IMG/VR virus record: IMGVR_UViG_3300005613_000094
Coordinates: 1-50,189 of that record
DNA from: a virus
Lineage: Duplodnaviria > Caudoviricetes
Reading direction: 5' to 3' (one strand)
Length of the DNA stretch: 50,189 nt
Under the pieces are notes generated by a model, which saw nothing but the letters and a program-made list of their open reading frames with translations, was not told where the DNA came from and made no database searches. The position numbers were made by a program, and so were the translations under genes. Numbering within the stretch: the stretch's first letter is position 1; each line of letters opens with the position of its first letter. Below are positions 1-50,189 of the stretch, one piece after another.

Positions 1-123
1 ATGCCCGCTCGCTTAGCCACCCGCGTCATGACTGGTGTTGCCGGTGAGGGTTTGGAAGAACTTGGCCAATCAGGTGTCGAGCAGATAGCACAGAACGTCG
101 CTCTTGGCAAGCCTTGGGATGAG
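1..123. repeat. Terminal direct repeat, copy 1 (circular assembly overlap)
   Basis: Identical to 50067-50189 and falls inside an ORF, so it indicates a circular/permuted assembly rather than a biological terminal repeat. Confidence 0.95.
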
Positions 124-3100
124 GGTGTGGAAGAAGCCATGGCCATCGGTTTTCTAGCGGGTGGCACATTAGGCGGTGCCGTCAACGTAGCGACCACGAG
201 AACCAAGAAGAGTATTTTAAACCGAGCAATTGACAACGCTGCAGCCAAAGAAGTCAAGGCGATGGCCGGTGCTCAACACGCGGAGCAGGGTAAAGAAATT
301 TTGGAAGGCCTTGGCGGTGCTGCAGCAGAGAGCAAGCTTCGTACCCGTTCGCCTGAAGCATTCAAAGAATTTGTCAGGACTATGGCTGAAGACGGCGAAA
401 CCTCCATCACCGAGGTGTTCATCGCAGCAGACAAGTTCAACGAGTCACTAGCTCAATCAGGACTCACCCCGGAAGAATTGACCGAGAAGATGCCAGAAGT
501 AGCTCGTAATCTTCAGGTGGCTACTGAGACCAGTGGCGATGTCAGAATTCCGATTGAAGACTACCTGACCTACTTCGTCGGTTCAGAAGCTGAAACCAGC
601 ATCCTTGACAACTTGCGTGTGACGCCTGACGGCTTGACATTCAACGAGTCACAAGAATATTTTCAGAAGCAGGAAGCTGACCTGACCGAGCAGGCTAGAC
701 AGATCATAACCGAGAATGAGCCGGTACTTAGCCGAGAAGATTACGCTGACCACACCATGGGACAGGAAGCACCAGCGTACGAAGATTACCTGAAGAACCA
801 CGAGAACAAGGTGGAAGCCTTCGCCGCTGACGCATCGGAAGTCCACGAGCAGATTCTACAGGGGTTGAACAAAGCTGGTCGTTTCACCAAAGCGGTCAAC
901 GCCTCATACGCGATACCGTTCCGGGAGTTCTTCGCGGTAAACGCAGCCCGCCAGGGTGTTATGCCTTCCGAGTTGTTCAAGACTATGCCTCTGAACTTCC
1001 GCAACGTAACCATTAACGGTGGCAGCTTGACCCAAAAAGACGCACCTCCTGAAGCGGCACTACTACCCCCTACACTAGATGTAGACGGCGCCACGCGCTC
1101 GACGACGAACAGTGAAGGACAACTATTAGCTAAAGACGAGGAAGGCGTGAGGAACTTCTGGCGGTGGTTTGGCGACAGTAAAATCGTCGACGCGGAAGGC
1201 AGACCGAAGGTTATGTATCACGGGTCACCTAACGACTTCGAGGTGTTCGATTTCGAGCGTATGGGGGAACAAGGCACTTCTGAGGGCCAAGGTCTTTACT
1301 TTACTCCGAACAGAGCCGTGGCTGAGACTTACGCAACAGGGGGTAAGTTATTCGCAACGTACCTGCGGGTGAGAGGACCGTACTCAGACAAAAAGCGCAC
1401 GGTGACTAAGGGCCAAATTAAAAAAGTTCTCAAGGAGCTGCACAGAAACGACCCTGACGCGCTAAGTAACTACGGCGACGTTGACTTCGAGGGGGTAAAC
1501 GGCGTTTTGACTAACGCGGTGGAGATAGAGGACAACGCGGAAAGCGACGCTGACTTTGTTGGTTCACTCATAAACGGGGGTATCGCCACCATCGAGGAGG
1601 TGTTCGCCTCACTAACGGAGGCCACAGGCCGCGATGGTGTAGTTACCGAGTGGTTAAGCCCTGACAAAGAGAGCAGTATCGAGGTTGTAGTGGTCACTAA
1701 CCCGACCCAAATAAAATCGGTAGAAAACGTAGGCCCATTCAACCCTGCCGACCCGAACATATTTAAACAATCAACATTCCTTAGCCCAGAGAGCGTAACC
1801 AAGTTTGCTGAAGGCCTAGCAGCCGAGGTAGGGTTGAAAACTTTACAACTTTCACTCAACAATCAAGGCAACCTTAAATTAGGCACGATCATCGTGGCCA
1901 AGGCCGACCGTAAAAAAGGTGTTGGCACCCAAGCTATGGAGCGTATCACCGAGTATGCAGACCACCACGGCCTGAAGACGGTACTGACCCCCGCAGTTCA
2001 GGACGACTTCCAAGGGACGACTTCCAGAGGGCGGCTTGTTAAGTTTTACAAACGCTTCGGTTTCGTAGAGAATAAAGGCCGCAATAAAGATTTTGAAATC
2101 TCCGAGGGTATGTTCCGGGAGCCTGTACGGGAGACGTTAGCCCAGTTCGCAGGCCCAACGGCTGCGACCGCCGACCAGTTCAACCTGGGACGGGCGAAAG
2201 AACTGGCCGCAACCGGTATGGCTAACGAGGACATCCGTGAATTAACCGGTTGGTTCCAAGGCGTAGACGACAAGTGGCGCTTTGAGATCGACGACAGTAA
2301 AGCAGCTATCAGCACCAAGTACGCAGCGCGTGGCATGGACTGGGGTGACATCTTCTTCAATACGGTAGACGCCAGGGAGAGCACGCTACTCGGTGACGTT
2401 GTAGACCACCCGGCTTTGTTCGCAGCTTACCCAGCCCTTGCGCAGATGGACGTGGGGCTAATACCCGCCTCCGACGGGGCTTCGTTCGATGCGGGGCAAG
2501 GTTCTAAGCCTCCCCAGATAAAAATAGGCGCAAAGGTCCGTAAGACAAACCTGTTGTCGGTCATTATGCACGAGGTACAACACGGGCTACAGAACATCGA
2601 AGGTTTCGCCCGTGGGGGGTCTACTGAACTTATCGCCCAACTTAAGCAAGACCAGATCAAAGACCTCACGGAACTCACCAGGAACCCAGAGGTGCTTGGC
2701 ATAATACAAGAAGTTGACAAGCTTCGGTTTAAGTTGGAAGGACAGCCTGTAGCCAAAGCTGAAGTCGAGAAGCAGTTGGCCGAACTCGAAGCCGAGTTGT
2801 CTAAAGATTCCGCCGTGTTTAAAGATTACCGCGACGTCGTCGACACAGTATCTTTCTTGGACTCCGAGCAGAGCTTAGAACAAGGCTATCGACGCCTAGC
2901 TGGCGAGATCGAAGCACGCAACACCCAAGATCGTCTAGGGTTGAATGAAGGCGCACGTCGGATACTCTCGCCGCAGTCCACGCAGGATGTGCCAGACGAT
3001 CAGGCTATTGTTATTTTCCGCAAGCCGCAGGTCGACGCCACTAAGCCACTCCCTGTGCCTGATAACTTGACACCGAGTACAACACTAGCACAGTCCACTT

Positions 3101-6100
3101 TCTTCTCAGCCCTAGAACGAGAAATCGGTGGCCTCAAGAAAGTGGCCAACAAGGAAGGCTTCATCAAACCGAAGCAGGCTATCGCGTGGATAACCGCCCG
3201 CCAGAAAGAAGGCAAGTTCAAGAAGGAAGAAGTGGAAGCGGTCGGCATCTTGGATTGGTTGGCCGCTGAGGAAGACCCCGTGCACTTGACGGGTATTGAG
3301 TCCTTCGTACAGATGAACGGTGTGCAGATCGAGGACGTGGAGTTAAGAGAGGGTGGCCTGGGTGCTCTGTTCGGAGAAGGAGAAGATAACGAGTGGTTCG
3401 TGGTAGACGCTGAGGGGGCCGTAGAGGAGTACTTCGCCAATCTTGACGACGCGGAACACTATGTCGCCGCATCGGACGATGTGGATTTAACGATTGACTC
3501 AGCGTATAACCCCGAACTAGATGAGGGAGAACCCGGAACCAAATTCGAGCAGTACACCCTACCAGGTGGTGAGAACTATAAAGAATTGTTGCTCACCCTA
3601 CCCGGTGACTTCAAGTTCCAGGATACCGCTCACTTTGAGCAAGAGAATATCCTGGCACATATTCGGTTTAATGAGCGGGAGGCCGAGGCTCCTCTGTCCG
3701 AAGAGATGCTCGCTGAAAAGGCGGCGTATAGCGCAGCGCTACCTGAAATATTAGAGATAGAACAGCAACAGGCTAAAGCACGGCGTCAGACGTCGCAAGA
3801 ACGGAAGCCGATCCGGGATCGGTTGCGCGACGAGGTAGAAGCCGAAGGTAAACTCTTGCGCCACGAGATTGAATCCGAGGTGGAAGACAGGTTGCGCACA
3901 CTACCTCCTACTCCAGGCATGTTGTTGCAAAAAGAGCTAAACGATAGGCGGAACGAACTCCCACAGAAGCCAGACTTCCTGAACTTCGCCCCTAAAGATC
4001 GCGTCCTCTTCATCGAAGAGATACAATCTGATTGGGCGCAGGCTGGGCGTAAGAGAGGTTTCCGTGTATCGAAGCAGCGTGAAGCTGAGATCCGTAGACG
4101 CACCAAAGAGATCGAAGCACTAGGCGTTGAAGCCCCCTCTGACTTGAAGACGGAGTGGGCAGCTTTAATGACCGAGCTACAACCCGAACGGCTTGGCACT
4201 AAAGTGTCACAAGGCCCATTCGTCAAGGACACGAAAGCATGGACAGCCTTAGCGATGAAACGCATGATGCGCTACGCAGCCGAGAATGGCTTCGACCGTA
4301 TCGCGTGGACTACAGGGGCACAGCAAGTTGATCGGTTTGATTTGAGTAAGCGACTGTCTGAGGTGCGTTACTCAGGCGACACGATAAAAGCCCACGACCA
4401 CGACGGCAACTTAGTAATAAGCCAGTCAGGTGTGACCGATGAGAACCTGGAAGACCACATCGGAAAAGAAGCGGCGGCGAAGTTACTAGCCCAGCCTAAA
4501 GAAGGGCAAGGCCAGATACGCACCTTGAAGGGCCTCGACCTCAAAGTAGGCGGTGAAGGTATGATCGCGTTTTACGACAAGATCGTCCCGCAGGTAGCCA
4601 ACGACATTTTGAAGAAGTTGAAAGGCCCGAAGGTTGAAGTGGTCGAGATGGGCGACAAGAAGCTACGAGAAGCGCGTGACGACTTTCCTGTTGACGATCG
4701 CGTAGGTGAGCAGCTAGGCTTCGAGATTACCCCCGAATTGCGCGAGAAGATCCTCCAAGGGTTGCCGTTGTTTCAAGGCGACCGTGCTTCGTACAACCCG
4801 AAGACATTCACCATCTCACTGCTTGAAGGATCTGACTTATCCTCAACGATTCACGAGGGCGGACACTTCTACCTGGAAGCACTAGCGGAAATGGCCGGTA
4901 AGCCAAACGCACCACAACAGATCGTCGACGATTTTAACAAAGCGATGTCATGGTTTGGTATCGAAGACCCGAACACCTGGCGCAGTATGACCCTCGAAGA
5001 GAAGCGTATGTCCCACGAGCAGTGGGCGCAATCTTTCGAGCGTTACATATTAGAAGGCAAGGCACCAACAACCAAGATGCAACCTGTATTCGCCCGCTTC
5101 CGTACCTGGATGCTGGACGTCTACAAGTCAATGCGTGACTTTTTAGAAACCAACCCACTAGCAGGTAAATTAAATGATGAAATACGGCAAGTATTCGACC
5201 GACTCCTCGCAGCCGAAGATGCTATTCTCGAAACGGAAAAAGAACGAGAATACGCTCCTTTGTTCAACACTGCGGAAGAGGCTGGGGTATCCCCGTCAAA
5301 GTTCCAAGCGTATCTTGACGAGGGTGAAGCAGCTACGGCACAAAGCATTGACGAGCTGTCCTCTAGAAGTCTTCGTGATATGCGCTGGCTTGCTAACGCC
5401 AAGTCCCGAGTCATCAAGGAATTGCAAGCGGAAGCCAAGGACAAGCGGGCGGCCATACGGACTCAGGTAGCAGTTGAGGTTATGTCCGAGCCGATTAACC
5501 AGGCTCGCGGATTCCTCCGCAAGGGTGAGTTCTTCAACGCAGATGGCAGCACGACCAAGGTTGACGAACCCTTCAAGCTGAACACGGATAATGTCAAGGC
5601 GTTACAACCCGACATCGACCTGGGGAAGATCAGAGGTATGACATCGCCCAAGGGCGCACACCCGGATCTCGCGGCCCAGATGTTTGGCTTCGATTCCGGT
5701 GATGCACTGATCACCGAATTAGCTGAAGGCGAACGCCCGGCTGAGCGTATTGAGAACCTCACCACCCAGCGCATGTTGGAAGAACACGGTGACCTGGTTG
5801 ACAATCGCGCAGTTGAGATCGCAGCCGAGAAGGCCATCCACAACGAGGCACGTGCCAGGTTTATGGCAACCGGTTTACAGATGTTGACAAAGTCTTCAAT
5901 TACTGTACCGCAAATAAACCGTGCTGCAAAAGCTGCAGCCGAGGCAGCCATTGCACAGAAGAAAATTCGTGAGCTTACCCCTGGCCAGTATGCCAGAGCA
6001 GAAGCCAAGGCGAACAAGGAATCCACCAAGAAGGCCGCTAAAGATCCGAACGGAGCGATCAAAGCACAGCGTGCTGCACTGCTTAACAACCGGCTTGTTC

Positions 6101-8553
6101 GAGCTGCTACAGAGGCACGTACAGAGGTTGAGAAGCACCTGCGCTACCTGCGGAAATTCGACAAGCCTTCACTGCGCAAGTCGGTTGATGCTGAGTACCT
6201 GGAACAGATCCAAGATTTACTGAGCGGCTTCGATCTTCGCAAGGGCGTGACTGCCAAGGCTATCGACAAGCGCAAGTCACTGGCTGACTGGATGGCTGAC
6301 CAACAAGCACTCGGATACGAGCCTGCACTTGACCCTGCACTGCTCGACGACCTGAAGCGCAAGCACTACAAAGAAATGACCATGGAAGAACTACGTGGCC
6401 TGGTTGATGGCGTCAAACAGGTTGAGCACTTCGGACGTATGAAGCATAGAATGCTCACCGACAAAGAAGCCCGAGACTTCCAAGCGCTCGCTAACGATGC
6501 CGAGGATTCTATCCGAGCTAACGCCAACCGTGTTGTTAAAGCACGCGGCACGCCAACAGACGTCATCGGCATCACGGCGCAGTGGGCACGTCGCATGGCA
6601 GCAGCGCACCGGAAATTTAACTCGTTCATCCGTGAGATGGACGGCAGTAAAGATAACGGGGTGATGTGGAATCTGTTCTCACGCGGGATGAATGAAGCTG
6701 GGGACAACGAAACACAAATGAAACAGGACGCTGCCAACGCGATTGCCGACTTGTTCAAGAAACTACCGAAGGATGGAACTGTCGCCGGTAACATATACGC
6801 TCGCAAGAAATTGGTGCCAGGTACTGACTTCAGCATGACCCACGAGCAGCGCGTTATGTTCGCTATGAACTGGGGTAATGAAGGTAACCGCCAGCGACTG
6901 TTGGACGGCGGTACCACCGGTAAGAAAGCATTGTCACCAGCGCAGGCTCAGAAGGTGCTTGACACATTGACCAAGGAAGATTGGGAGTTTGTCCAGGGTG
7001 TGTGGGACTACATCGGCTCATTCAAGCCACAGGTAGCTGCGTTAGAAAAACAGCTAACCGGTGTTGCGCCTGAGTGGGTGGAAGCTACACCAATCACGAC
7101 CAAGTTCGGCACATTCACCGGCGGGTACTTCCCGGCTAAATACGACGCGCTGTTATCCACCCGCAGTGAGTCACTCGAAGCAGTCACCGACTTACGGATG
7201 GGTATGAAGGCCGCCTTCGGTGCCTCAGCTACTCGTAGCGGTTACGTGAAGAACAGAGCCGACGCGGTTATCGGTCGCCCTCTGCTACTCAGCTACAATG
7301 TTATTAGCCAACACGTGAGTGAAGTCACCCACCGGCTTGCTTGGCAACCGTGGTTGATCGACGCCAATCGTATGTTGAAGGCACTTGACCAGCCTATACG
7401 CGACCACTACGGCGTAGAGGTTTTGCAGGAAATGCGCGACACCATAGAAGACATCGCAACGGGCGACAACCCTGGGCGTAACGCGATGGAAGTAGCGATC
7501 AACCGAGTTCGCACTGGGTCCACAATCGTTGGCCTGGGCTGGCGATTCTCTACCGCACTGATGCAGTTCACCGGTCTCTCACAGAGCGCGGTTCGTATCG
7601 GGTCAGGTTGGATGGGTCGAGGGGTTGTTGACTACCTGAAGAACCCACTGGCCGCCGGTCGTCTCGTGGACAGCAAGTCCAAGTTGATGACTGACCGTGG
7701 TCGCACGATGATGCGTGAGATTAACGAGGTGCTCAACACGGTACGCTCAGGCGAAGGACTGAACAACGTGACAGCCAGTTACTTTACGATGATCGGTAAG
7801 GCCCAGCGCATGGTTGATATACCTACCTGGCTGGGAGCTTACGAGAAGGCGCTACACGAGCTTAAGGCAGAGAACGCTACCGACGATAAGCAGCGCCAGG
7901 ACATCGACGAGAAGGCAGCCGCTCTGGCTGATCAAGCTGTGGTTGATTCACAATCCGGGGGTCAGGTTAAAGACTTGGCCCGTGTGCAGCGCGGAAGCCC
8001 ATTGTGGAAATTGTTTACTAACTTCTACAGTTACTTCAGCGCCGCATATAACATGAACATCGAAGCTTTCCGCCGTACGAACTTCAAGTCACCTTCCGAG
8101 GTGGGTGCGTTCGCCATCGACATGCTGCTACTAAACACCGTACCGGTTGTCCTCGGCTTGGCGGTCAAGGAAGGGTTGAAACCGTCTTGTGAGGAGCTGG
8201 ATTGCTACGCGGAGAAGCTGGCCAAGGAACAGATTTCACATCTCATGGGGCAAATGATCCTGTTACGTGAGATGAGTGCGGGTGTCGAGGGTGCCTTGGG
8301 TATGCAGACTTACGGGTACCAAGGCCCAGCCGGTTTGAGGTTCTTCAGTGATGTCCAGAAAGCGGGTGTGCAGCTCGGCCAAGGCGAAGCCGACGCGGCG
8401 CTATACAAGGCACTCAACAACGTCGGCGGAGCGGTGCTGCACTACCCTGCTGGCCAGGTAGCTGCTACGGTCGAAGGCATCGCTGCCATCGAACGAGGCG
8501 ACGTGGGACCTGAGGGTATGCTGCAGGCCATCCTTGCTGGGTCACCTAAATAA
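1..8553 (+). CDS. C-terminal 2850 aa of a giant (~3233 aa) internal virion/DNA-ejection polyvalent protein (ART, GNAT, LPD23-like, zincin HExxH modules); true start at 48918 across the circular junction
   Basis: Motifs: WFGDSKIVD..G.P..YHG..GLYFT..YA (ART of polyvalent proteins); RKKGVGTQAM..LVKFYKRFGF (GNAT); TGWFQGVDDKWRFEIDDSKA (LPD23-like); HEVQH..GEIEAR and HEGGH..HEQWA (zincin-like). Last and largest of three ejection-protein genes after the nozzle. Confidence 0.85.
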   Translation: MPARLATRVMTGVAGEGLEELGQSGVEQIAQNVALGKPWDEGVEEAMAIGFLAGGTLGGAVNVATTRTKKSILNRAIDNAAAKEVKAMAGAQHAEQGKEILEGLGGAAAESKLRTRSPEAFKEFVRTMAEDGETSITEVFIAADKFNESLAQSGLTPEELTEKMPEVARNLQVATETSGDVRIPIEDYLTYFVGSEAETSILDNLRVTPDGLTFNESQEYFQKQEADLTEQARQIITENEPVLSREDYADHTMGQEAPAYEDYLKNHENKVEAFAADASEVHEQILQGLNKAGRFTKAVNASYAIPFREFFAVNAARQGVMPSELFKTMPLNFRNVTINGGSLTQKDAPPEAALLPPTLDVDGATRSTTNSEGQLLAKDEEGVRNFWRWFGDSKIVDAEGRPKVMYHGSPNDFEVFDFERMGEQGTSEGQGLYFTPNRAVAETYATGGKLFATYLRVRGPYSDKKRTVTKGQIKKVLKELHRNDPDALSNYGDVDFEGVNGVLTNAVEIEDNAESDADFVGSLINGGIATIEEVFASLTEATGRDGVVTEWLSPDKESSIEVVVVTNPTQIKSVENVGPFNPADPNIFKQSTFLSPESVTKFAEGLAAEVGLKTLQLSLNNQGNLKLGTIIVAKADRKKGVGTQAMERITEYADHHGLKTVLTPAVQDDFQGTTSRGRLVKFYKRFGFVENKGRNKDFEISEGMFREPVRETLAQFAGPTAATADQFNLGRAKELAATGMANEDIRELTGWFQGVDDKWRFEIDDSKAAISTKYAARGMDWGDIFFNTVDARESTLLGDVVDHPALFAAYPALAQMDVGLIPASDGASFDAGQGSKPPQIKIGAKVRKTNLLSVIMHEVQHGLQNIEGFARGGSTELIAQLKQDQIKDLTELTRNPEVLGIIQEVDKLRFKLEGQPVAKAEVEKQLAELEAELSKDSAVFKDYRDVVDTVSFLDSEQSLEQGYRRLAGEIEARNTQDRLGLNEGARRILSPQSTQDVPDDQAIVIFRKPQVDATKPLPVPDNLTPSTTLAQSTFFSALEREIGGLKKVANKEGFIKPKQAIAWITARQKEGKFKKEEVEAVGILDWLAAEEDPVHLTGIESFVQMNGVQIEDVELREGGLGALFGEGEDNEWFVVDAEGAVEEYFANLDDAEHYVAASDDVDLTIDSAYNPELDEGEPGTKFEQYTLPGGENYKELLLTLPGDFKFQDTAHFEQENILAHIRFNEREAEAPLSEEMLAEKAAYSAALPEILEIEQQQAKARRQTSQERKPIRDRLRDEVEAEGKLLRHEIESEVEDRLRTLPPTPGMLLQKELNDRRNELPQKPDFLNFAPKDRVLFIEEIQSDWAQAGRKRGFRVSKQREAEIRRRTKEIEALGVEAPSDLKTEWAALMTELQPERLGTKVSQGPFVKDTKAWTALAMKRMMRYAAENGFDRIAWTTGAQQVDRFDLSKRLSEVRYSGDTIKAHDHDGNLVISQSGVTDENLEDHIGKEAAAKLLAQPKEGQGQIRTLKGLDLKVGGEGMIAFYDKIVPQVANDILKKLKGPKVEVVEMGDKKLREARDDFPVDDRVGEQLGFEITPELREKILQGLPLFQGDRASYNPKTFTISLLEGSDLSSTIHEGGHFYLEALAEMAGKPNAPQQIVDDFNKAMSWFGIEDPNTWRSMTLEEKRMSHEQWAQSFERYILEGKAPTTKMQPVFARFRTWMLDVYKSMRDFLETNPLAGKLNDEIRQVFDRLLAAEDAILETEKEREYAPLFNTAEEAGVSPSKFQAYLDEGEAATAQSIDELSSRSLRDMRWLANAKSRVIKELQAEAKDKRAAIRTQVAVEVMSEPINQARGFLRKGEFFNADGSTTKVDEPFKLNTDNVKALQPDIDLGKIRGMTSPKGAHPDLAAQMFGFDSGDALITELAEGERPAERIENLTTQRMLEEHGDLVDNRAVEIAAEKAIHNEARARFMATGLQMLTKSSITVPQINRAAKAAAEAAIAQKKIRELTPGQYARAEAKANKESTKKAAKDPNGAIKAQRAALLNNRLVRAATEARTEVEKHLRYLRKFDKPSLRKSVDAEYLEQIQDLLSGFDLRKGVTAKAIDKRKSLADWMADQQALGYEPALDPALLDDLKRKHYKEMTMEELRGLVDGVKQVEHFGRMKHRMLTDKEARDFQALANDAEDSIRANANRVVKARGTPTDVIGITAQWARRMAAAHRKFNSFIREMDGSKDNGVMWNLFSRGMNEAGDNETQMKQDAANAIADLFKKLPKDGTVAGNIYARKKLVPGTDFSMTHEQRVMFAMNWGNEGNRQRLLDGGTTGKKALSPAQAQKVLDTLTKEDWEFVQGVWDYIGSFKPQVAALEKQLTGVAPEWVEATPITTKFGTFTGGYFPAKYDALLSTRSESLEAVTDLRMGMKAAFGASATRSGYVKNRADAVIGRPLLLSYNVISQHVSEVTHRLAWQPWLIDANRMLKALDQPIRDHYGVEVLQEMRDTIEDIATGDNPGRNAMEVAINRVRTGSTIVGLGWRFSTALMQFTGLSQSAVRIGSGWMGRGVVDYLKNPLAAGRLVDSKSKLMTDRGRTMMREINEVLNTVRSGEGLNNVTASYFTMIGKAQRMVDIPTWLGAYEKALHELKAENATDDKQRQDIDEKAAALADQAVVDSQSGGQVKDLARVQRGSPLWKLFTNFYSYFSAAYNMNIEAFRRTNFKSPSEVGAFAIDMLLLNTVPVVLGLAVKEGLKPSCEELDCYAEKLAKEQISHLMGQMILLREMSAGVEGALGMQTYGYQGPAGLRFFSDVQKAGVQLGQGEADAALYKALNNVGGAVLHYPAGQVAATVEGIAAIERGDVGPEGMLQAILAGSPK

Positions 8554-27829: not shown

Positions 27830-28548
27830 AAGAATTAGATTCTTACTTAACCCGCTTCGGCGGGTTTCTTTTTGTGTGAGGTATGAACCAGAATGAGATT
27901 CTTATAAGAATGAGATTCTTGTTGGTGATTGTTATGGGTGCCACGGGTGGATTTTTGGGGGCACGTTTTGGAGGGTAAATTTTAGGTGTTTGGGGCGGAA
28001 TTGGTCGGCTGTCAGGGGGCGTGTGTGGCGTGTTAGGAAGTCAGAGGGTAGGCTAACCCCCACGGAAGGTCGCTTGCGTCGCGCCAGGGTGCCTTAAAAT
28101 CGGTCTGAGGTGTATTCCAGAGGTCAGATGTTAGTGTTATGTGTCAGCCGAGGTGTATTTTTTGATGTTATTCCGGGTTACTTTTATTTTTTTTTGATTT
28201 TAACTCCACCCCTCCCCTCCCTCTAGCCCCTAAGGGCTAGTGAGGGAGAGAGGCGTAGCAAGGGCTTGGCCTCCCAATTTTTTAGCTTTTTGCTCGCTAG
28301 GCGCTGAACCCCGCCAGTACTGGGCTTCAGCGAGTTTTTGACCCGCCTTTTTTGGCCCAAAAACAGGTTGGATTTTAGTCTCGACCGTGCTTTTTTCCTG
28401 AAACCCCCGTAGTTGCTGGGTTTCAGAGGAGCACCACGGAAAAATAGCTAGGTAAGTGTAAAAAAGCACGGTAAAAAAAAGTTAGGTCGAACAAGAATGG
28501 TATTCTGATTAGCTATCAGAATGAGATTCTTATAAGAATGACATTCTT
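27830..28548. repeat. Six copies of the palindrome (A/C)AGAAT-N3-ATTCT(T/G) flanking a non-coding region (seventh copy at 31392-31406)
   Basis: Copies start at 27830, 27889, 27906, 28493, 28517 and 28534. Confidence 0.85.
27849..27873 (+). terminator. Rho-independent terminator
   Basis: AACCCGC-TTCG-GCGGGTT followed by TCTTTTT. Confidence 0.9.
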
Positions 28549-28582
28549 ATTCAATTAATTTACAAATAAATGGAAATAATAC

Positions 28583-28611
28583 TTGACACGTGATAAATAC
28601 CCCTATAAACT
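28583..28611 (+). promoter_or_regulatory. Strong sigma70-like early promoter
   Basis: TTGACA, 17-nt spacer, TAAACT; AT-rich UP-like upstream sequence. Confidence 0.8.
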
Positions 28612-28642
28612 CGGGTTCTGAACTTGGAAAAAGGACCCGATT

Positions 28643-28888
28643 TTGAGACTCAAGGACTATGAAATACCAGGTGAGGAGAACCACCAGGTTCATGCTTACC
28701 TGGATAACCAAGATAGTTATGTAATATTTAGCTACCTTGGGGCGGAGATAGTAAAAAGGGATATCACTTCTAACAAGAATCGATTCCTAGCAAGACAAGT
28801 GAAGTTGTTTATCGAGAAGTACCACACAGAGGAGAAACAAGATGGGAACAGTAAACTGGAAATTGCGCAGCCGACGTATTCGTGGTAA
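28643..28888 (+). CDS. Hypothetical early protein
   Basis: TTG start with AAGGA RBS, immediately after the promoter. Confidence 0.6.
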   Translation: MRLKDYEIPGEENHQVHAYLDNQDSYVIFSYLGAEIVKRDITSNKNRFLARQVKLFIEKYHTEEKQDGNSKLEIAQPTYSW

Positions 28889-29042
28889 AGGCCCACACAT
28901 TGTCAACAGCGGTATCGTTGACGAATTCGTAGGTACTTACGCAGCAACACAACACGCAGTCAGTTTGAACGCTCAGTCATCACTAGTAATACAGAGCACA
29001 GCGTTCTTGATAGGTTTAGTTTATTTGATTATTAATTTGTAG
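28842..29042 (+). CDS. Hypothetical protein with C-terminal transmembrane segment
   Basis: GAGGAG RBS; hydrophobic C-terminus. Confidence 0.55.
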   Translation: MGTVNWKLRSRRIRGKGPHIVNSGIVDEFVGTYAATQHAVSLNAQSSLVIQSTAFLIGLVYLIINL

Positions 29043-29113
29043 CAGTGTAAGCGTTCAGCTCTTTGCGGAGAGCTGAGCGGTCAACATTGACCATAACAAT
29101 TAGGAGAATTAAA

Positions 29114-29248
29114 ATGTTACAGAGAATATGTGAACTACTAGACGTGACCCAACAGCAAGGCACACCACGCTCAGAAACAGTTATTGTTGAGGGCGTAACC
29201 TACCGCTTAACCACTGATGGGCAACACGTTGAACAAGTAACACGGTAG
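29114..29248 (+). CDS. Hypothetical protein (44 aa)
   Basis: ATG at 29114 with AGGAG RBS. Confidence 0.55.
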   Translation: MLQRICELLDVTQQQGTPRSETVIVEGVTYRLTTDGQHVEQVTR

Positions 29249-29361
29249 AGTTTTTTCGCAGCGCCTCACTTTTTAATTAGTACAAATAGTTGAAAAGTTT
29301 GTCGACACAACAAATCGGGGCGCTGCGGGCCTAACTTTATAGGTAAACGAGGAGAAATATT

Positions 29362-29733
29362 ATGGGTATAACTATGTCAACTAAAAAAAAATCAAGAGTC
29401 GCTGCAGTAGAAGCTCGCGAGCTGCGCACCGAGCAAGAAGTAGCACCCCTTTTGGTCCAGAAGGCCGCGCACGATAAACTAGTTAGTGCAGTTAGCGAAC
29501 GCGCAAGGGACCTAGCTAACGAGATAGAGCGGTTACGCCAAACTAGGTATGCGGTGTACACGTTCTTCACCGAGAAGCACCCTGAGCTATTAGAGGAGTT
29601 TGTCAATGTAGCCTACAAGGAATGCGACGATAAAATGGAGTCCCATGCTGTTTCGGGCTTCCACGACGACGGAGTGCTAGATATGTCAACGATCAAGTGC
29701 ACCGGCGACGACTTTGACCCTTGGGAAGATTAG
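29362..29733 (+). CDS. Hypothetical protein
   Basis: GAGGAG RBS; coiled coil. Confidence 0.65.
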   Translation: MGITMSTKKKSRVAAVEARELRTEQEVAPLLVQKAAHDKLVSAVSERARDLANEIERLRQTRYAVYTFFTEKHPELLEEFVNVAYKECDDKMESHAVSGFHDDGVLDMSTIKCTGDDFDPWED

Positions 29734-29745
29734 CGGAGGCGAATC

Positions 29746-30105
29746 ATGGTTAGATTGAGAACAGGGAAACACCCCACGGATACACGATTCAGGTTGTGGG
29801 ACAGAGAACCTTGGTTAGACCCTGTAACAGGGGAAGAGGTAGAGTGGTCGTTGTACTACTTGTTCTACCCTGGTACTACGGCACTAAGAAGGTGGTATAG
29901 GTATAAACTAGTAGCCGACGAACCAGCGGAGCACAAAGCGAACTACATGCTCGCGCACAACCCCCACGAGTATCGTTTCTCAATGCATAGCGACAGCCTC
30001 ATGTTAGAAGAACACCGCTCCGGGCTATACAGGAAGGTGTTGCAGGAAATACAGAACCGTGGGTTACATTTATTAACTGAAGATGAATTAAAGGAGATTT
30101 TCTGA
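29746..30105 (+). CDS. Hypothetical protein
   Basis: GGAGG RBS. Confidence 0.65.
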   Translation: MVRLRTGKHPTDTRFRLWDREPWLDPVTGEEVEWSLYYLFYPGTTALRRWYRYKLVADEPAEHKANYMLAHNPHEYRFSMHSDSLMLEEHRSGLYRKVLQEIQNRGLHLLTEDELKEIF

Positions 30106-35739: not shown

Positions 35740-37326
35740 TTGAGTCTTAATCTAGAAGACATCGTATCCGCTCTGGCTGCAGCACCACAGAGTGTATTGG
35801 ATGACCTTGAGGGGTTAGCCTTACCTGCGCTCGCTGGCAGGGCCTGGGTGCCCAATCCAGGTCCTCAGACAGAGGCCTACTACAGTGAGGCGGATGAACT
35901 GTTCTACGGCGGGCAGGCGGGTGGCGGTAAAACCGATTTAGAACTCGGCCTGGCACTCACAGAACACGAACACTCGTTGATACTACGGAGAACCAACACC
36001 GAGGTCAATGGGCTCATAGAACGCCTGGAAGGCATTGTAGGCAACCGTGACGGTTTGAATGGCAGTAACGGTGTATGGCGCAGGCCTGAAGGTAAGGTCA
36101 TCACGCTTGGCGGGTGTCAGTTAGAAGAAGATAAGCAGAAGCGAAAGGGTAACCCGAATGATTTGATATGCTTCGATGAGGTGTCGGATTTTTCCGAGAC
36201 ACAATACACCTTCATCATCGGTTGGAATCGCTCAGCCACACCTGGACAGCGATGCCGTGTGGTAGCTGCGGGCAACCCACCAACACGCCCGGAAGGGCTG
36301 TGGGTGATGCGCCGTTGGGCAGCCTGGTTAGATCCTACTCATAAGAACCCGGCGAAACCTGGTGAATTAAGATGGTACACTACGCTCGACGACCAAGAAA
36401 TCGAGGTCGACGGAGCAGGCCCGCATAACTTGGGAGGCCGAGTTGTCTACGCAAGATCCCGGACGTTTATCCCAGCTACGTTGGACGATAACCCGGATCT
36501 CGTGGGCACCGGCTACCAAGCAAGCCTCGACTCACTACCTGCAGAATTACGCGCCGCTTACCGTGATGGCGACTTCGGCACAGGACTGAAAGACAACCCG
36601 TACCAATGCATACCAACCGATTGGGTGTCCGCAGCACAGCGACGCTGGACTAGCACACCCCCACCCGGGGTTCCGATGTGTTCAATGGGCGTCGACGTAG
36701 CCATATCCAAGGACAAGTTTGTTATCGCACCACGACATGATGGTTGGTACGCCAAGCTGATCAGCGTTCCTGGCGGGGAAGTGGGCGACAACCCGAAGAA
36801 AGCAGCGGGTGTGGTGATCGCTGAGAGGTACGACGAAGCCAAGGTGGTTGTTGATGTGGGCGGTGGCTGGGGCGCAGATTGCCTGGCCCAGCTCGCTACC
36901 AATGGCATTGACGCTGTCGGGTACATGGGTGTCAAGGCATCCAGGCGCAAATCCGCAAATGGGCGCTTCACATTCAGCAACGTGAGAACTGAGGCGCTGT
37001 GGCGTTTCCGTGAAGCATTAGATCCATCGCAGCCAGGTGGTTCAAGCATTATGCTACCGCCAGGGCCTACCATCAAAGCTGATCTGTGTGCACCTTCGTA
37101 CAAGGTTAAGGGTCACCAGAAAGGGCAGACGTTGATAGCCGAAAGCAAGGAAGAAGTCTGTAAAAGGCTTGGGCGCTCGACAGATGAGGGAGATGCCGTT
37201 ATAATGTCTTGGTACGATGGAGTTAAACAACATAATTTAGAAGGCGGTTGGCAAGGCGGGCGCAACAAAAACCCGGTAGTCAACGCAGGCAGAAGTGTAA
37301 ATCGCGCAGCACAACGTAGGAGGTAA
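35740..37326 (+). CDS. terL: Terminase large subunit
   Basis: PNPGPQ; YGGQAGGGKT Walker A; ICFDE Walker B; GVDVA and D..DA RNase H-like nuclease motifs. Confidence 0.93.
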   Translation: MSLNLEDIVSALAAAPQSVLDDLEGLALPALAGRAWVPNPGPQTEAYYSEADELFYGGQAGGGKTDLELGLALTEHEHSLILRRTNTEVNGLIERLEGIVGNRDGLNGSNGVWRRPEGKVITLGGCQLEEDKQKRKGNPNDLICFDEVSDFSETQYTFIIGWNRSATPGQRCRVVAAGNPPTRPEGLWVMRRWAAWLDPTHKNPAKPGELRWYTTLDDQEIEVDGAGPHNLGGRVVYARSRTFIPATLDDNPDLVGTGYQASLDSLPAELRAAYRDGDFGTGLKDNPYQCIPTDWVSAAQRRWTSTPPPGVPMCSMGVDVAISKDKFVIAPRHDGWYAKLISVPGGEVGDNPKKAAGVVIAERYDEAKVVVDVGGGWGADCLAQLATNGIDAVGYMGVKASRRKSANGRFTFSNVRTEALWRFREALDPSQPGGSSIMLPPGPTIKADLCAPSYKVKGHQKGQTLIAESKEEVCKRLGRSTDEGDAVIMSWYDGVKQHNLEGGWQGGRNKNPVVNAGRSVNRAAQRRR

Positions 37327-37498: not shown

Positions 37499-37660
37499 AT
37501 GGGTGGCATGGTTAAAACATTAGGTAAAGTAGCAGGTGCCCCACTAGGCGCTATCCCCGTAGTCGGTAAGAAGTTGAAGAAAGCTTCTAACAAGATACAC
37601 GGCATCAAGAAGAAGGGACCTCCAACAGTCCTGAGTGACAACCGATTCACACAACTGTAG
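37499..37660 (+). CDS. Small basic protein (53 aa)
   Basis: MGGMVKTLGKVAG...; GGAGG RBS. Confidence 0.55.
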   Translation: MGGMVKTLGKVAGAPLGAIPVVGKKLKKASNKIHGIKKKGPPTVLSDNRFTQL

Positions 37661-37679
37661 CAGTAACCGAGGAACCAGT

Positions 37680-39326
37680 ATGTCCGTCGAATTTGTACTA
37701 GCACAAGGAAGCAAACTCTTCGAAGAGCGCTTCAACCTGCTGACTCTGTGGCAAGAAATAGCGGAGAACTTCTACCCTGAGCGGGCAGACTTTACTGTCA
37801 ACCGGGCTTTAGGCAGTGAGATGGCTGAGGGGCTGGCGTCTGGTTCTCCAATCTTAGTCCGCAGGGAGTTGGGTAACGCGATAGGTGGGATGCTCCGCCC
37901 GACCAACAAGGTGTGGGCACGCGCACGTGTGGACAACTGGGACGAGGTAACAACGGAGGCCAAGGCTTGGCTTGAACGAGCAGAGGAACGTCAACGTAAG
38001 GCCATGTATCACAGACAAACCGGTTTCGCAAGAGCAGTCAAGGAAGCCGATCACGACTTTGCAACGTTTGGGCAAGCAGTCATCCAGGCGACCTACAACC
38101 GCACCTTCACAGGCTTACTGTACCGATGTCATCACCTCCGTGATTGTGCTTGGACAGAAGGCACTGACGGGCTAGTCGATGTCGTCTACCGTAAGTGGAA
38201 GACGACCGCGATAGAGTTGGCGAGGATGTTTCCTAAGACCCTACACCGGGAGATACAAGACAAGGTAGCGAAGTCCCCATACGAACCTGTAGAGGTGTGG
38301 CATTGCGTACTCCCCAGGGACATTTTTGAATCCGACGGCAAGAGCAAGCACAAAACAAAATATGTAAGCATATACCTAGACGTGGCGAACAAGCACATGA
38401 TGGAAGAGGTCGGACTCAACCGACAACAGTACATCATCCCGAGGTGGCAAACTGTATCGGGAAGCCAGTACGCCTATTCACCAGCGGTAGTCGTTGGGCT
38501 ACCCGACGCGAGGACGCTTCAGGAAATGACCCTTACTTTGCTGGACGCCGGGCAGAAAGCAGTGACGCCCCCTATGTTAGGGGTACAAGGCGCACTACGC
38601 TCGGATGTCAATGTAATGGCCGGAGGCTTAACCTGGGTTGATAGGGAGTATGACGAACGACTGGGCGAAGTACTACGCCCATTGACTATCGATAAGAGCG
38701 GTATCCCCTTAGGGTTAGATATGGCTCAGGCTGTCGAAGCCAAACTCACCGAGGCGTTCTACCTAAACACGATAGGGCTACCCCCAACAGGAGGCCCAGA
38801 CATGACCGCCTTTGAGGTGGGGCAGCGCGTACAAGAATACATCCGCAGAGCGTTACCTCTGTTTGAGCCGATGGAAAGTGAGTACAATGGCCCGCTGACC
38901 GAAGAGACATTTGAATTGTTAATGGGCGCCGGGGTCTTTGGCCCTGTGTTTGGTATGCCCAAAGAGCTACAAGGACGGGAGGTTAAGTTCCAGTTTGAGT
39001 CACCGTTACACGATGCCCTCGAAAATGTCAAGACCCAGCGATACCTAGAAGCTACGTCGCTGTTGGCGAACGCCGCAGCAGCAGACCCAGCAGTCGCACA
39101 CATTATTGATGTTAAGAAAGCCACACGGGAAGCGCTGCTGGCATCTGGAACCCCGGCAGATTGGCTGCGCTCCGAGCAGGAAGTTAACGACGCAGCCGCT
39201 GCCGAGGCAGAAGCAGCCCAGATACAACAACAACTCGCGCAGATGCAACAAGGCGCGGACATCGCCGCAACTATCGGCGCGACACAAGCACCGGCAGGCA
39301 CCGGAGGGACGGGAGTACCTAACTAA
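37680..39326 (+). CDS. Portal (head-tail connector) protein
   Basis: WQEIAE.F.P; DFATFG; PRW....S.Y..SP; PP; MTA.EV..R..E; F.F.SPL; position after TerL. Confidence 0.92.
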   Translation: MSVEFVLAQGSKLFEERFNLLTLWQEIAENFYPERADFTVNRALGSEMAEGLASGSPILVRRELGNAIGGMLRPTNKVWARARVDNWDEVTTEAKAWLERAEERQRKAMYHRQTGFARAVKEADHDFATFGQAVIQATYNRTFTGLLYRCHHLRDCAWTEGTDGLVDVVYRKWKTTAIELARMFPKTLHREIQDKVAKSPYEPVEVWHCVLPRDIFESDGKSKHKTKYVSIYLDVANKHMMEEVGLNRQQYIIPRWQTVSGSQYAYSPAVVVGLPDARTLQEMTLTLLDAGQKAVTPPMLGVQGALRSDVNVMAGGLTWVDREYDERLGEVLRPLTIDKSGIPLGLDMAQAVEAKLTEAFYLNTIGLPPTGGPDMTAFEVGQRVQEYIRRALPLFEPMESEYNGPLTEETFELLMGAGVFGPVFGMPKELQGREVKFQFESPLHDALENVKTQRYLEATSLLANAAAADPAVAHIIDVKKATREALLASGTPADWLRSEQEVNDAAAAEAEAAQIQQQLAQMQQGADIAATIGATQAPAGTGGTGVPN

Positions 39327-40969: not shown

Positions 40970-41108
40970 GCGGTCTACATAGAAGTGAAAGGCACTTGCA
41001 GTGCTCCCGCCGCCCCTGAAGCTAGGACATCCGGTAGGCCCACCGATAGTTACCCCTCGATACTTTAGATAAGTAGTTTTATTTAATTTAATTATAGGAG
41101 TGGCTATC

Positions 41109-41939
41109 ATGGCTGAATCCGCGTTTCAAGTACAATACCGCCAAGAATTTATTCAAGGCTTTGAACAGACCCAATCTCTTGCCCGCAACACCGTAACTAC
41201 TGAATCTGTTGTCAAGGGCAATCAGGCTACCTTCTTGGTTGCCGACTCCGGTGACGCCGAAGCGGTTACCCGTGGGCTTAACGGTTTAATCCCTGGCCGT
41301 GCTGATAACTTGACCCAGAACACAGCGACTCTTGTTGAGTGGCATGATAAACCTATCAAGACCGGATTCAACATTTTCGCGTCTCAAGGTGATCAGCGCC
41401 GCATCATGCAAGAAACCTGTATGGCTGTTATCAACCGCAAGATTGACCAAGACATCATCGTTGAGCTCAACACCGCTACACAAGATACCGGTGCCGCGCA
41501 GCAAGCTAATCTAGACCTGGTTATGTACGGACGTACTATCCTAGGCAACAACGCTGTGCCGCTCGACGGCAACGTCAGCGCGCTGATTACCCCAGCGTTT
41601 GAAGCTTACTTGATGCAGGTTAAAGAGTTCGCCAGCGCCGACTACGTCAGCAACACACCATTCAGCTCACAGTTGACTATGTTCCGCTGGGCCAACGTAA
41701 ACTTCATAGTCCACCCTAACTTGCCAGGTGCAGGTACAAATGCAGAAAAATGTTTCTTGTACCACAAGTCCGCTATCGGTCACGCGATTGATAAAGGAAA
41801 TATCGGCAGCAAGGTCGGCTACAACGAAGAAGACGACTATAGTTGGGCGTTATGTAGCGTGTTCATGGGGCCGCAAATCCTCCAGAACTCAGGCATCGTT
41901 GTACTAAACCACGACGGCTCTGGTTACGCAGCTCAGTAA
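41109..41939 (+). CDS. Major capsid protein
   Basis: F..QY..EF...FEQ..S..R.TV; A.NR..D..I; F.YHK.A.G; position after the scaffold. Confidence 0.9.
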   Translation: MAESAFQVQYRQEFIQGFEQTQSLARNTVTTESVVKGNQATFLVADSGDAEAVTRGLNGLIPGRADNLTQNTATLVEWHDKPIKTGFNIFASQGDQRRIMQETCMAVINRKIDQDIIVELNTATQDTGAAQQANLDLVMYGRTILGNNAVPLDGNVSALITPAFEAYLMQVKEFASADYVSNTPFSSQLTMFRWANVNFIVHPNLPGAGTNAEKCFLYHKSAIGHAIDKGNIGSKVGYNEEDDYSWALCSVFMGPQILQNSGIVVLNHDGSGYAAQ

Positions 41940-46134: not shown

Positions 46135-46475
46135 TAGAGATCCGACGAGCAAAGAAAGAAGATGTGCTCCGCTGGTATAACGGGAAACCTATGTACTCTA
46201 TGAAGGGCTACGTCGCTGAAAAAGACGGTGAACTTTTAGGGTTGGGTGGTGTCTTCCGTGTTGGGGGTCACAGGTACGTTTTTGCGGAAATGCTCCCGGA
46301 AGCACACCGCTGGGCTAGAAGCATTTTGCGCATCGCGAAGAAAGTAATTGAAGACGTGGGGGGTGATACAGTGTATGCTGTACGGCAGGAAGATGAGCCT
46401 ACGGCGCACCGGTTTTTAAAACACCTAGGTTTTGTCGAGGTCACACCCGGTAACAATTTGTACAGGAGAAACTAG
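46131..46475 (+). CDS. GNAT-like virion assembly protein (T7 gp13-like position)
   Basis: G..LG.GG; A.RFL..LGF; ATGA overlap with the nozzle gene. Confidence 0.65.
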   Translation: MIEIRRAKKEDVLRWYNGKPMYSMKGYVAEKDGELLGLGGVFRVGGHRYVFAEMLPEAHRWARSILRIAKKVIEDVGGDTVYAVRQEDEPTAHRFLKHLGFVEVTPGNNLYRRN

Positions 46476-48917: not shown

Positions 48918-50189
48918 ATGCCGAATCAAGCTGACTTAGATGAACTCCGCCGAATAAGCGGAGTTTCCAGTGTGGAACCCGTTAACCCACGTGCTGCGAT
49001 GATTTCAGAAGACGCGCTTGAGTTGACCGACCTTGTTACCCGAGGGGAAGACACGATCAACGCTGAGCGAGAAGTAGCCGGTGACGACGTCCCGGCACCC
49101 AAGATCAAACCACCAACACCTGCTGAGATGCAGACTGACCAGTTAGACCAGTCTATCCGCCATGCAGCGACTGCCGACGCTGAAGGCGAAGCGAGTAAAA
49201 GACGTATGGCGGTTGACCTAGGCATTCCCAAAGAACTATTACCGGATAACGCTGAAGAAGAACTATTTCACAAGCAGAACGACGCTGAGACATTGCAACG
49301 CACGCACCCAGCCACCGCCAAATACATGGCTGACCAGGGCAACGCCACCATCGTCGGTAAAGACATTGAAGAACTGAAGGGCATGGAAATGTTTATGTCC
49401 CGGTTCGTTAAAGACCCGTTAATCGATTTGTTGAAAGGCACCATCGCCGTACCTGAGACGGTCGCTGGTCTTGGTGGCATCGCCAGAACAGCTGCGCCCG
49501 AACTCGTACCAGTAGTCCTCCGCAATGCGTTAAAAGCGATACCACAGGTGGCCGAAGCCGGTGACGCTGTGACACGTGCGCGCCGGGCGGTAGAGGGCAC
49601 TGTTGACTTCAAGCGAAGCCAAGAGATACTCGACGCCATGCAGTCTCCTGAACGCCAGGAGGCACAGCGCCTTCTAGCTGAGACCCAGGGATTCTTCCCT
49701 TCCTTAGGACAGGCCCTGGAAACCCCATCGGTCATCGGAGGCGCTGTCGTACAGAGTATACCGAGTCTGGGGGTGAGTGGTGTGTTCGCGCAGCAGTTGA
49801 TGAAAATATTTCCGAAGTTAGCGCCTCTGGTCGCAGGCGCGGCTGGCGAAGGTTTGACCATCACCGGTTCCTCTGCGGAATCAATCCGACAAGAAACCCA
49901 AGACGGGGAGTTGAACGCTCCGCAGGCACTCGCTGCAGTAACCGCCGGTGTCGCTGGCACAGGTATCAATATCCTCGGCGGTAAGATCGCGCAGAAGATG
50001 GGCGCCACTGACATCGACACGGCCATCGCATCAGGTTCTTTGAAGAAAGCACTTGACGCATCAGGGATGCCCGCTCGCTTAGCCACCCGCGTCATGACTG
50101 GTGTTGCCGGTGAGGGTTTGGAAGAACTTGGCCAATCAGGTGTCGAGCAGATAGCACAGAACGTCGCTCTTGGCAAGCCTTGGGATGAG
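48918..50189 (+). CDS. N-terminal part of the giant ejection/polyvalent protein (continues into 1-8553)
   Basis: ATG at 48918 with AAGGA RBS; frame read by hand is open for 383 codons to 50066 and is in frame with the ATG at 50067 (= position 1). Confidence 0.9.
   Translation, partial: MPNQADLDELRRISGVSSVEPVNPRAAMISEDALELTDLVTRGEDTINAEREVAGDDVPAPKIKPPTPAEMQTDQLDQSIRHAATADAEGEASKRRMAVDLGIPKELLPDNAEEELFHKQNDAETLQRTHPATAKYMADQGNATIVGKDIEELKGMEMFMSRFVKDPLIDLLKGTIAVPETVAGLGGIARTAAPELVPVVLRNALKAIPQVAEAGDAVTRARRAVEGTVDFKRSQEILDAMQSPERQEAQRLLAETQGFFPSLGQALETPSVIGGAVVQSIPSLGVSGVFAQQLMKIFPKLAPLVAGAAGEGLTITGSSAESIRQETQDGELNAPQALAAVTAGVAGTGINILGGKIAQKMGATDIDTAIASGSLKKALDASGMPARLATRVMTGVAGEGLEELGQSGVEQIAQNVALGKPWDE
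50067..50189. repeat. Terminal direct repeat, copy 2
   Basis: Identical to 1-123. Confidence 0.95.

Follow-up and report, generated by a model that had tools for sequence, protein, structure and literature searches.

INTRODUCTION

Polyvalent proteins, which occur in phages and in conjugative elements, were defined in 2017 by Iyer, Burroughs, Anand, de Souza, and Aravind (PMC5512222), and the available passages of that paper propose that their domains are released autoproteolytically by a metallopeptidase, either in the head or after injection. Since then, polyvalent proteins have been a phenomenon of domain architecture, while domain release stayed a proposal without a defined site. Here, we analyzed a 50,189-nucleotide stretch of viral DNA (IMG/VR record IMGVR_UViG_3300005613_000094, Caudoviricetes, positions 1 to 50,189; hereafter, the window), which carries a giant gene whose product joins several enzyme modules to a conserved core. 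We found that modules of this protein and its homologs end in a short signature, composed of a hydrophobic residue (mostly leucine) at P3, any residue at P2, and glutamine at P1 (phi-x-Q), and that the signature coincides with the points at which modules are exchanged. In agreement with the polyvalent framing of an initial annotation, made from the DNA letters, the protein resembles the polyvalent proteins in the available part of PMC5512222 by combining ADP-ribosyltransferase (ART-PolyVal), GNAT, peptidase, and LPD22/LPD23 domains in one giant chain, by its late or virion gene context, and by the shuffling of its domains. It differs in two respects. The same passages name no cleavage motif or junction, whereas here phi-x-Q marks the junctions family-wide, and the candidate protease here is the zincin that opens the ejection-protein core.

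The core aligned with Bbp10 of Bordetella phage BPP-1 at 39% identity by blastp (1244 residues, 1590 to 2833, against Bbp10 766 to 2036; tblastn, 37%, E = 0) and is ~30% identical to giant proteins of Caulobacter, Xanthomonas (Cp2), Pseudomonas (AF), Vibrio, and other podoviruses. In the part of Hardies et al. (2016, PMC4819975) available to us, Table 2 lists Bbp10 as the counterpart of internal virion protein D (T7 gp16). For phiXacm4-11, a relative of Cp2, a 2300-residue gp35 was proposed as a core protein by synteny, with no structural match in the available text (bioRxiv 10.64898/2026.02.16.706137). The window shares with the Bbp10 type the same gene order, namely, the tail tube A and B genes, then those of a small internal protein, of a 610-residue internal protein, and of the giant protein. 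Bbp10 itself carries FDQ at residue 608 and FYQ/G at residue 768 (a slash marks the junction). However, Bbp10 has only 2052 residues, arranged as an N-terminal domain, a ~160-residue segment, and the core, while the window protein has four extra enzyme modules. Residues 700 to 1000 of Bbp10 served as a seed of the CLCA_X zincin family, which is given as the sister family of the self-cleaving CLCA_N metalloproteases in the accessible passages of Lenart et al. (2013, PMC3650047). Those passages give the consensus HExxHxxxD and hold nothing on substrates, junction motifs, or ejection proteins. Our family shares with CLCA_X an acidic residue four positions past the second histidine of HExxH (HEGGHFYLE in the window) but uses glutamate in place of aspartate. 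The core aligned with Bbp10 from residue 766, which lies inside the seed region.

Two further systems provide parallels with no homology implied. During head maturation of T4, the prohead protease processes internal proteins, as well as Alt, an ADP-ribosyltransferase that is injected, at (L/I)-x-E sites. The resemblance lies in the hydrophobic P3, the Glx at P1, and the packaged and injected enzymes, including an ADP-ribosyltransferase; in contrast, T4 relies on a serine protease with a gene of its own, and short targeting peptides are trimmed off, whereas here one polyprotein would be cut into modules, P1 is glutamine, and no separate protease gene was recognized among 20 other ORFs. Viral polyproteins are cut after glutamine by 3C-like proteases, and MARTX-type toxins free their effector modules by a built-in protease. 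These share with the present family a modular precursor, a short conserved junction site, a built-in protease (here, a candidate), and effector cassettes that are exchanged between relatives, but differ in protease class, organism, and delivery route. We found no literature on a glutamine junction motif or mapped cleavage in this family, with supplements and subscription journals outside the search.

RESULTS

The giant protein holds a variable cassette between two conserved parts

The first 123 bases of the window (1 to 123) are an exact repeat of the last 123 (50067 to 50189), so the contig is circularly closed and comprises 50,066 unique bp. The giant gene spans the junction on the plus strand (48918..50066, then 1..8553) and encodes 3233 residues with no internal stop; the joined product is identical to database protein P0002. 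We therefore ruled out a 5′-truncated open reading frame (ORF) at base 1, as the frame there continues ORF 48918..50189 across the junction. Unless noted otherwise, residues are numbered in P0001, the 2850-residue translation of window 1 to 8553; adding 383 gives the full-protein number.

The protein consists of three zones: a conserved N-terminal domain of ~700 residues, a variable cassette, and a constant core of ~1260 residues. As judged by profile and model matches, the cassette comprises a putative ADP-ribosyltransferase, a small GNAT acetyltransferase, an LPD23 module with a zincin-like HEVQH motif, and a large GNAT-like module. Pfam placed ART-PolyVal at residues 397 to 576 (71.3 bits; cut-off, 31.2), Acetyltransf_1 at 617 to 688 (26.3 bits; cut-off, 20.7), and LPD23 at 715 to 770 (74.8 bits; cut-off, 27), with position 2 of the LPD23 profile falling on residue 715. 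Together with LPD22, these place several unrelated effector or enzyme domains in one 3233-residue ORF, and the ART, GNAT, and LPD23 modules named in the initial annotation thus all scored above their cut-offs.

The initial annotation had also proposed that the modules are bounded by (L/F)-x-Q motifs. All five were found where it had placed them: SLTQ at residues 342 to 345 (nucleotides 1024 to 1035), IFKQ at 587 to 590 (1759 to 1770), TLAQ at 712 to 715 (2134 to 2145) and again at 1028 to 1031 (3082 to 3093), and PLFQ at 1589 to 1592 (4765 to 4776). The same was true for the two HExxH motifs, HEVQH (residues 857 to 861) and HEGGH (1618 to 1622), and for LFIEEIQSDW (1336 to 1345). The edges of the PHROG matches (364 to 594, 599 to 711, 715 to 877, and 1593 to 2842) coincide with the motifs. 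Within this single protein, however, [LF]-x-Q is not enriched: it occurs 22 times, as compared to ~17 expected from composition, and 17 of the copies lie off the module boundaries. Thus, the pattern could not be called significant from this one sequence.

Around the five sites, no stretch of DNA longer than 4 nucleotides is shared. Exchange is thus not guided by DNA homology at the motif, a DNA-level recombination signal is ruled out, and the junctions owe their precision to selection on the peptide.

A glutamine signature marks the points of module exchange across the family

A search of the protein collection gave 842 matches of 1567 to 4988 residues, the best 119 of which were analyzed besides the window's own protein; these homologs are related, so the counts below do not represent independent events. 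A locus search that used one sequence of the core N terminus gave six loci, which were set aside. The ends and starts of BLAST high-scoring pairs (HSPs) clustered at residues 327 to 357, 587 to 597, ~707, 1027, and 1577 to 1597. Breakpoints thus pile up at the motifs, in line with the boundaries that had been proposed. At sites 1 to 5, glutamine occupied the aligned P1 position in 54/83, 35/35, 13/15, 22/28, and 83/91 of the aligned homologs, and phi-x-Q was present within four residues in 75/83, 35/35, 15/15, 24/28, and 83/91. The glutamine was retained regardless of the adjoining module.

The proposal that the motifs are also exchange points was borne out, because a given module can be found behind many upstream sequences that are unrelated to one another yet all end in phi-x-Q. 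Examples of such junctions are NILKQ/SAFYSALERE, NLFFQ/SAFYSALQRE, and SILEQ/NNRAGYNPDT. The 561-residue module always starts with S-[AST]-F-[FY]-S-A-L and is preceded by GFAQ, VFNQ, VLYQ, ILKQ, LFFQ, MYGQ, and others. The ART module always ends in P-N-I-L-x-Q, which is followed by at least five unrelated continuations, and the core always starts with x-R-[GA]-[SG]-[FY]-[ND]-P, preceded by PLFQ, ILEQ, TLAQ, VLYQ, or LLFQ. In Bbp10, Cp2, and phage AF, which are distant relatives, the motif before the core reads KFYQ/GGGRARGTF, RTLNQ/GGEKPRG, and RLLNQ/NDNGDARG, respectively, and a high-GC giant relative from a metagenome has TTLRQ/DERAE.

A first statistic, based on all unique HSP ends in an all-against-all comparison, gave almost no signal because it was dominated by the fragmentation of low-similarity alignments inside the core. 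We then refined the breakpoints by demanding that no collinear continuation exist within 200 residues and that at least 20 alignments support each one. With this definition, a nine-residue window contained phi-x-Q at 51% of the 188 start peaks and at 54% of the 195 end peaks, as compared to 13.7% of random positions. In a test that made no use of the motif, glutamine was the last aligned residue at 35% of the 195 end peaks, which is 7.1 times the background of 4.9%, and leucine, phenylalanine, and methionine were enriched 4.0-, 3.3-, and 2.7-fold two residues before the block end. At neighboring offsets, glutamine made up 4 to 14%. The enrichment is thus position-specific, which rules out a glutamine-rich linker composition. 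Conversely, 427 of 5230 phi-x-Q sites (8.2%) lie at supported junctions, while the corresponding values for the other 19 residues in the third position ranged from 0 to 5.8%. Together, these data place the motif far beyond chance and show that, throughout the family, selection acts on the signature at the level of the protein.

When the 120 proteins were split at those phi-x-Q sites that had breakpoint support, 533 segments resulted, 421 of which fell into 35 families (numbered with the prefix F) that align end-to-end with at least 75% reciprocal coverage; the segments, their families, and the logo below are conditioned on phi-x-Q, that is, on P3 and P1. The larger families are the core (115 members), the N-terminal domain (88), the 561-residue module (37), the ART module (36), a 77-residue zincin head (19), and a GNAT-sized module (10). 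Segments of 53 different families precede the core; next to the ART module, 18 families occur upstream and 19 downstream. Only 1 of 27 stretches covered by Pfam domains, in 10 proteins, contained a supported site. The site logo shows L (55%), F (14%), V (10%), and Y (9%) at P3; in addition, P6 favors G or P, and P1′ favors S, G, or A. Thus, the glutamine and the hydrophobic P3 of the initial motif hold, whereas its restriction to leucine and phenylalanine does not.

The glutamine tail is not a property of the ART fold. In 10 polyvalent proteins in which no core was detected, there are 11 ART-PolyVal copies; of these, glutamine was aligned in 1 and phi-x-Q was found within four residues in 3, which is near the 13.7% chance level, while inside the family both counts were 35 of 35. 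Copies from outside the family extend to the same conserved end (F-D-P-x-x-P-D-I) but go on with R-F-R, R-A-S, and similar sequences. The glutamine tail thus goes with the Bbp10-type core.

Two additional glutamines scored high on a site matrix, which is partly circular because it was built from the junctions of the homologs. One is Q78 of the full protein (nucleotides 49149 to 49151; DQLDQ/SIRH; score, 12.4), located where the Pfam LPD22 match starts (residue 77), and the other is Q222 of P0001 (nucleotides 664 to 666; QEYFQ/KQEA; score, 10.6). Both may be extra processing sites within the N-terminal domain.

Best candidate for the processing protease: the zincin that opens the core

Next, we considered which part of the protein could read the motif. 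The initial annotation had assigned cleavage to one of the two HExxH peptidases. Of the two, only the core peptidase is universal in the family, with its HExxH kept in 116 of 118 homologs and both exceptions being secondary alignments. In contrast, the HEVQH/LPD23 module is optional, with 15 of 119 homologs aligning over its start and a segment family of six members, and it was thus ruled out as the general protease. The core HExxH is the only peptidase-like element present throughout the family. In an alignment of 41 core starts, H26, E27, H30, E81, and E88 were invariant, and E81 and E88 are candidate metal ligands. The core zincin begins one residue past the last motif, and in the family its conserved block starts one to three residues after the P1 glutamine. 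Pfam does not assign this region to any family; it aligns with the CLCA_X seed region of Bbp10. An AlphaFold2 (AF2) model of residues 1593 to 1900 (predicted local distance difference test score, pLDDT, 84.8) consists of two short strands, the HExxH helix, a helical bundle, and then a 60-residue helix. Together, these features make the HExxH zincin, which comprises approximately the first 160 residues of the core, most likely the best candidate for the processing protease. A predicted complex of the zincin domain (residues 1 to 165 in alignment numbering) with a 40-residue peptide spanning the IFKQ junction scored 0.01 against a mark of 0.32, which counts neither way.

On this evidence, the motif is probably a protease site of some kind, and we lean, with more caution, toward the fuller model in which the motifs are cleaved and the core zincin is the protease. 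Several observations weigh against it. The structural match to zincins is weak: VIA-align superimposed the core start on the catalytic domain of a thermolysin-type zincin with a Z score of 6.0 over 94 residues (root mean square deviation, 4.0), and a Foldseek search of the PDB with the model of the core N terminus gave no match at E ≤ 0.001, the best zincin match having a probability of 0.63. Moreover, it is generally the P1′ side of a site, and not P1, that zincins recognize. In 19 homologs (family F4; P0009, P0014, P0023, P0037, P0041, and others), modules such as ART are inserted inside the zincin domain itself and separate its first ~77 residues, which hold the strands and the HExxH helix, from the rest. 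As these inserts have phi-x-Q on both sides (for example, GGSTLSQ/...ART...PNILEQ/GGETPPP), cutting there would split the enzyme. A stand-alone core provides a further difficulty. A search for shorter cores gave 57 proteins, in 10 of which the alignment begins somewhere in the first 40 residues of the core. Of the 10, eight carry sequence upstream of the core, P0161 starts without a methionine, and only P0190 (1211 residues, from a 39.8-kb contig) begins at the core start. The contig of P0190 had no match among viral contigs, and a metagenome scan yielded a different, giant relative. P0190 still carries HEIWH with nothing upstream to cut; thus, the zincin must have, or must also have, another substrate. 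Last, TLAQ-715 fell short of the breakpoint support required of a site and lies outside the 16 best glutamine positions of the site matrix, and the relatedness of the homologs and the conditioning of the segments on phi-x-Q, both described above, also count on this side.

Other readings of the signature

Some of these points would be accommodated if the motifs are cleaved by a different protease, namely, one of the host, an unrecognized protease of the phage, or a region of the giant protein other than the zincin, for example its N-terminal domain. Recognition on the P side, here at P3 and P1, is in general seen with serine or cysteine proteases more than with zincins, and the HExxH retained in P0190 as well as the interrupted zincins of the 19 homologs fit this explanation. 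In addition, many of the phage ORFs have no annotation. However, no protease family, including prohead proteases, was recognized among 20 further ORFs, including those for the head, tail, and internal proteins. The N-terminal part varies within the family (F1, F7, F13, F16, and F25), while nearly all members have the core zincin, the start of which coincides exactly with a site. As the only cysteines among the 2850 residues of P0001 are near its C terminus, a cysteine protease in the cassette or in the N-terminal part is unlikely. We thus regard a different protease as unlikely overall.

Alternatively, the motif might not be cleaved at all but serve as an element of module ends, such as a structural cap, a docking element, or a signal for unfolding or translocation, with the protein ejected as one chain. 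There is a precedent, as the available passages of PMC5512222 describe the N4 virion RNA polymerase, a polyvalent protein with a peptidase domain, as packaged unprocessed. It is also a general feature of bacterial proteins that interdomain linkers can be rich in glutamine. Such a role is difficult to reconcile with the finding that unrelated folds (ART, GNAT, the LPD23 module, the N-terminal domain, and the large GNAT-like module) share the P3/P1 pattern at their last residue, with the sharp peak of glutamine at that position, and with the absence of the motif from ART modules outside the family. Furthermore, P0190 is a natural protein that starts at a predicted P1′: its sequence begins with MVRFS, within one residue of the neo-N-terminus GDRAS predicted by cleavage. 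Uncleaved module ends therefore appear improbable to us, to a similar degree as a different protease.

That the five motifs are a chance pattern picked by eye, as the near-random [LF]-x-Q count and the 17 copies off the boundaries might suggest, is contradicted by the conservation in the homologs and the coincidence with breakpoints and has almost no chance of being correct.

A model for the processing of the giant protein and its consequences

The gene product is most likely the largest internal (ejection) protein of a BPP-1/epsilon15-like podovirus, turned into a carrier of polyvalent effectors; its location in the virion and its injection are suggested by homology and synteny. In the model that we favor, a sequence-specific endopeptidase, presumably the core zincin, would cut the giant precursor at the motif into separate proteins, either inside the capsid after assembly or after ejection; cleavage as such, the identity of the protease, and its timing are all inferred here. 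The core would then build the DNA conduit, while the released modules, among them the ADP-ribosyltransferase and the acetyltransferases, would work in the infected cell as enzymes in their own right.

A broader proposal, which we put forward tentatively and hold to be rather doubtful as a whole, is that the entire ejection-protein family constitutes a self-processing polyprotein system. Its code would be G/P-x-x-Leu-x-Gln, followed by the cut and S, G, or A, and would be read by the CLCA-like core zincin. Any enzyme module with this tail could then plug in and be delivered premade with the phage DNA, and the modules seen in the family, such as ART, GNAT, nucleases, a zeta-type kinase, a GGDEF cyclase, and a JAB peptidase, would be examples. 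In the 19 homologs with inserts inside the zincin, the final cut made by the protease would sever the protease itself, which would provide a built-in off-switch.

The junction code makes domain release testable, as it predicts the exact N and C termini of every module in hundreds of phage proteins. It also comes with a named candidate protease, in which there are three residues to mutate, and predicts which ejected species reach the cytoplasm. If the model is correct, ready-made ADP-ribosyltransferases, acetyltransferases, and other enzymes are delivered at the moment of DNA entry and exchanged between phages as cassettes. This would bear on the arms race between phages and their hosts and would offer a natural design rule for loading cargo into laboratory phages.

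The enzyme modules of the cassette

In the ART module, H407 is kept in 97% of the 36 family members, while the alignment in the middle of the module is poor around the tyrosine and the glutamate. The translation of the small GNAT module contains RKKGVG at the place of the acetyl-CoA loop, for which we take the consensus to be R/Q-x-x-G-x-G/A, and GNAT-sized modules of 105 to 124 residues (family F8) occur in 10 homologs. The LPD23/HEVQH module is shared with gp16 of phage AF. A phmmer search of PDB sequences with this module and with the ART module gave nothing meaningful.

The 561-residue module had no Pfam match and no Foldseek match in the PDB at E ≤ 0.001, and in a protein atlas it matched only unnamed clusters (0.84). 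Its AF2 model (pLDDT, 88.4; predicted template modeling score, 0.80) was compared to the PDB by VIA-align, and 48 of the 50 best chains were acetyltransferases, acyltransferases, or GNAT-type domains, with Z scores of 7.4 to 10.1 over only 110 to 154 of the 561 residues. The other two were helical-bundle matches to residues 201 to 301. This suggests that the module probably adopts a GNAT-like fold, the second in the cassette and an atypical one, that carries large insertions. In module numbering, E309, Q311, S312, and D313 are invariant and W314, Q316, G318, and G322 are nearly so. In the model, these residues sit on and just past the strand formed by residues 301 to 311, a region that may correspond to the acyl-CoA loop.

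The cassettes of relatives carry PBECR1 and PBECR5 nucleases, RadC/JAB, Zeta_toxin, GGDEF, a nicotianamine-synthase-like domain (NAS), MuF_C, DUF3293, LPD37, and DUF7178. These replace or add to the modules seen here, and the complement differs even between close relatives. A wide effector repertoire on one scaffold was seen in P0038, P0020, P0010, P0063, P0003, P0024, P0031, and P0007.

A portion of the N-terminal domain (P0001 residues 1 to 345 and the product of 48918 to 50189) matched the N-terminal region of phrog_2206, a family annotated as N4-type virion RNA polymerase, over profile positions 176 to 596 (E = 1e-08 and 2.3e-07). Different giant injected proteins thus appear to share a head piece.

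Genome context

The window represents the circular genome of a T7-supergroup podovirus (BPP-1/epsilon15-like). The giant gene comes after the gene of the 610-residue internal protein and is followed by replication genes on the other strand (Table 1). A megablast search with the giant gene against 50,697 phage records gave no match.

Table 1. Parts of the giant gene and late genes of the window. Residue numbers refer to P0001 unless marked as full-protein.
Feature	Position in window	Strand	Remarks
N-terminal domain, 5′ part (first 424 codons)	48918..50189	+	Holds LPD22; last 123 bases equal window 1-123
N-terminal domain, rest (whole domain: full-protein 1-728)	1..1035	+	Ends GGSLTQ, site 1; family F1, 88 members
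Putative ART-PolyVal ADP-ribosyltransferase module, residues 346-590	1036..1770	+	PF18760; ends PNIFKQ, site 2; family F3, 36 members
Putative small GNAT acetyltransferase module, residues 591-715	1771..2145	+	Acetyltransf_1; phrog_10691 at 599-711; ends ETLAQ, site 3
LPD23 and optional zincin-like HEVQH module, residues 716-1031	2146..3093	+	HEVQH at nucleotides 2569-2583; ends STTLAQ, site 4
561-residue module, residues 1032-1592	3094..4776	+	Starts STFFSALERE; carries LFIEEIQSDW; ends GLPLFQ, site 5; family F2, 37 members
Zincin-like metallopeptidase domain opening the core, residues 1593 to ~1752	4777..5256	+	HEGGH at nucleotides 4852-4866
Rest of conserved core (internal virion protein D/Bbp10-type body), including stop codon	5257..8553	+	phrog_9880 at 1593-2842
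Large terminase	35740-37326		
Portal	37635-39326		
339-residue ORF of no recognized family	After portal, before major head protein		
Major head protein	41100-41939		
Tail-tube protein A	42843-43490		phrog_394
Tail-tube protein B	43438-46134		phrog_376
Small internal virion protein	46476-47078		phrog_418
610-residue transglycosylase-like internal protein	47078-48910		Endolysin-type PHROG matches

A 136-residue ORF (46065-46475, plus strand) overlaps the end of the tail-tube B gene and gave a sub-threshold GNAT match (E = 0.0086; 16.8 bits against a cut-off of 20.7). The G+C content falls to 0.46 at ~28000 to 30000, between the primase-helicase gene and the late genes, as compared to 0.51 to 0.57 elsewhere.

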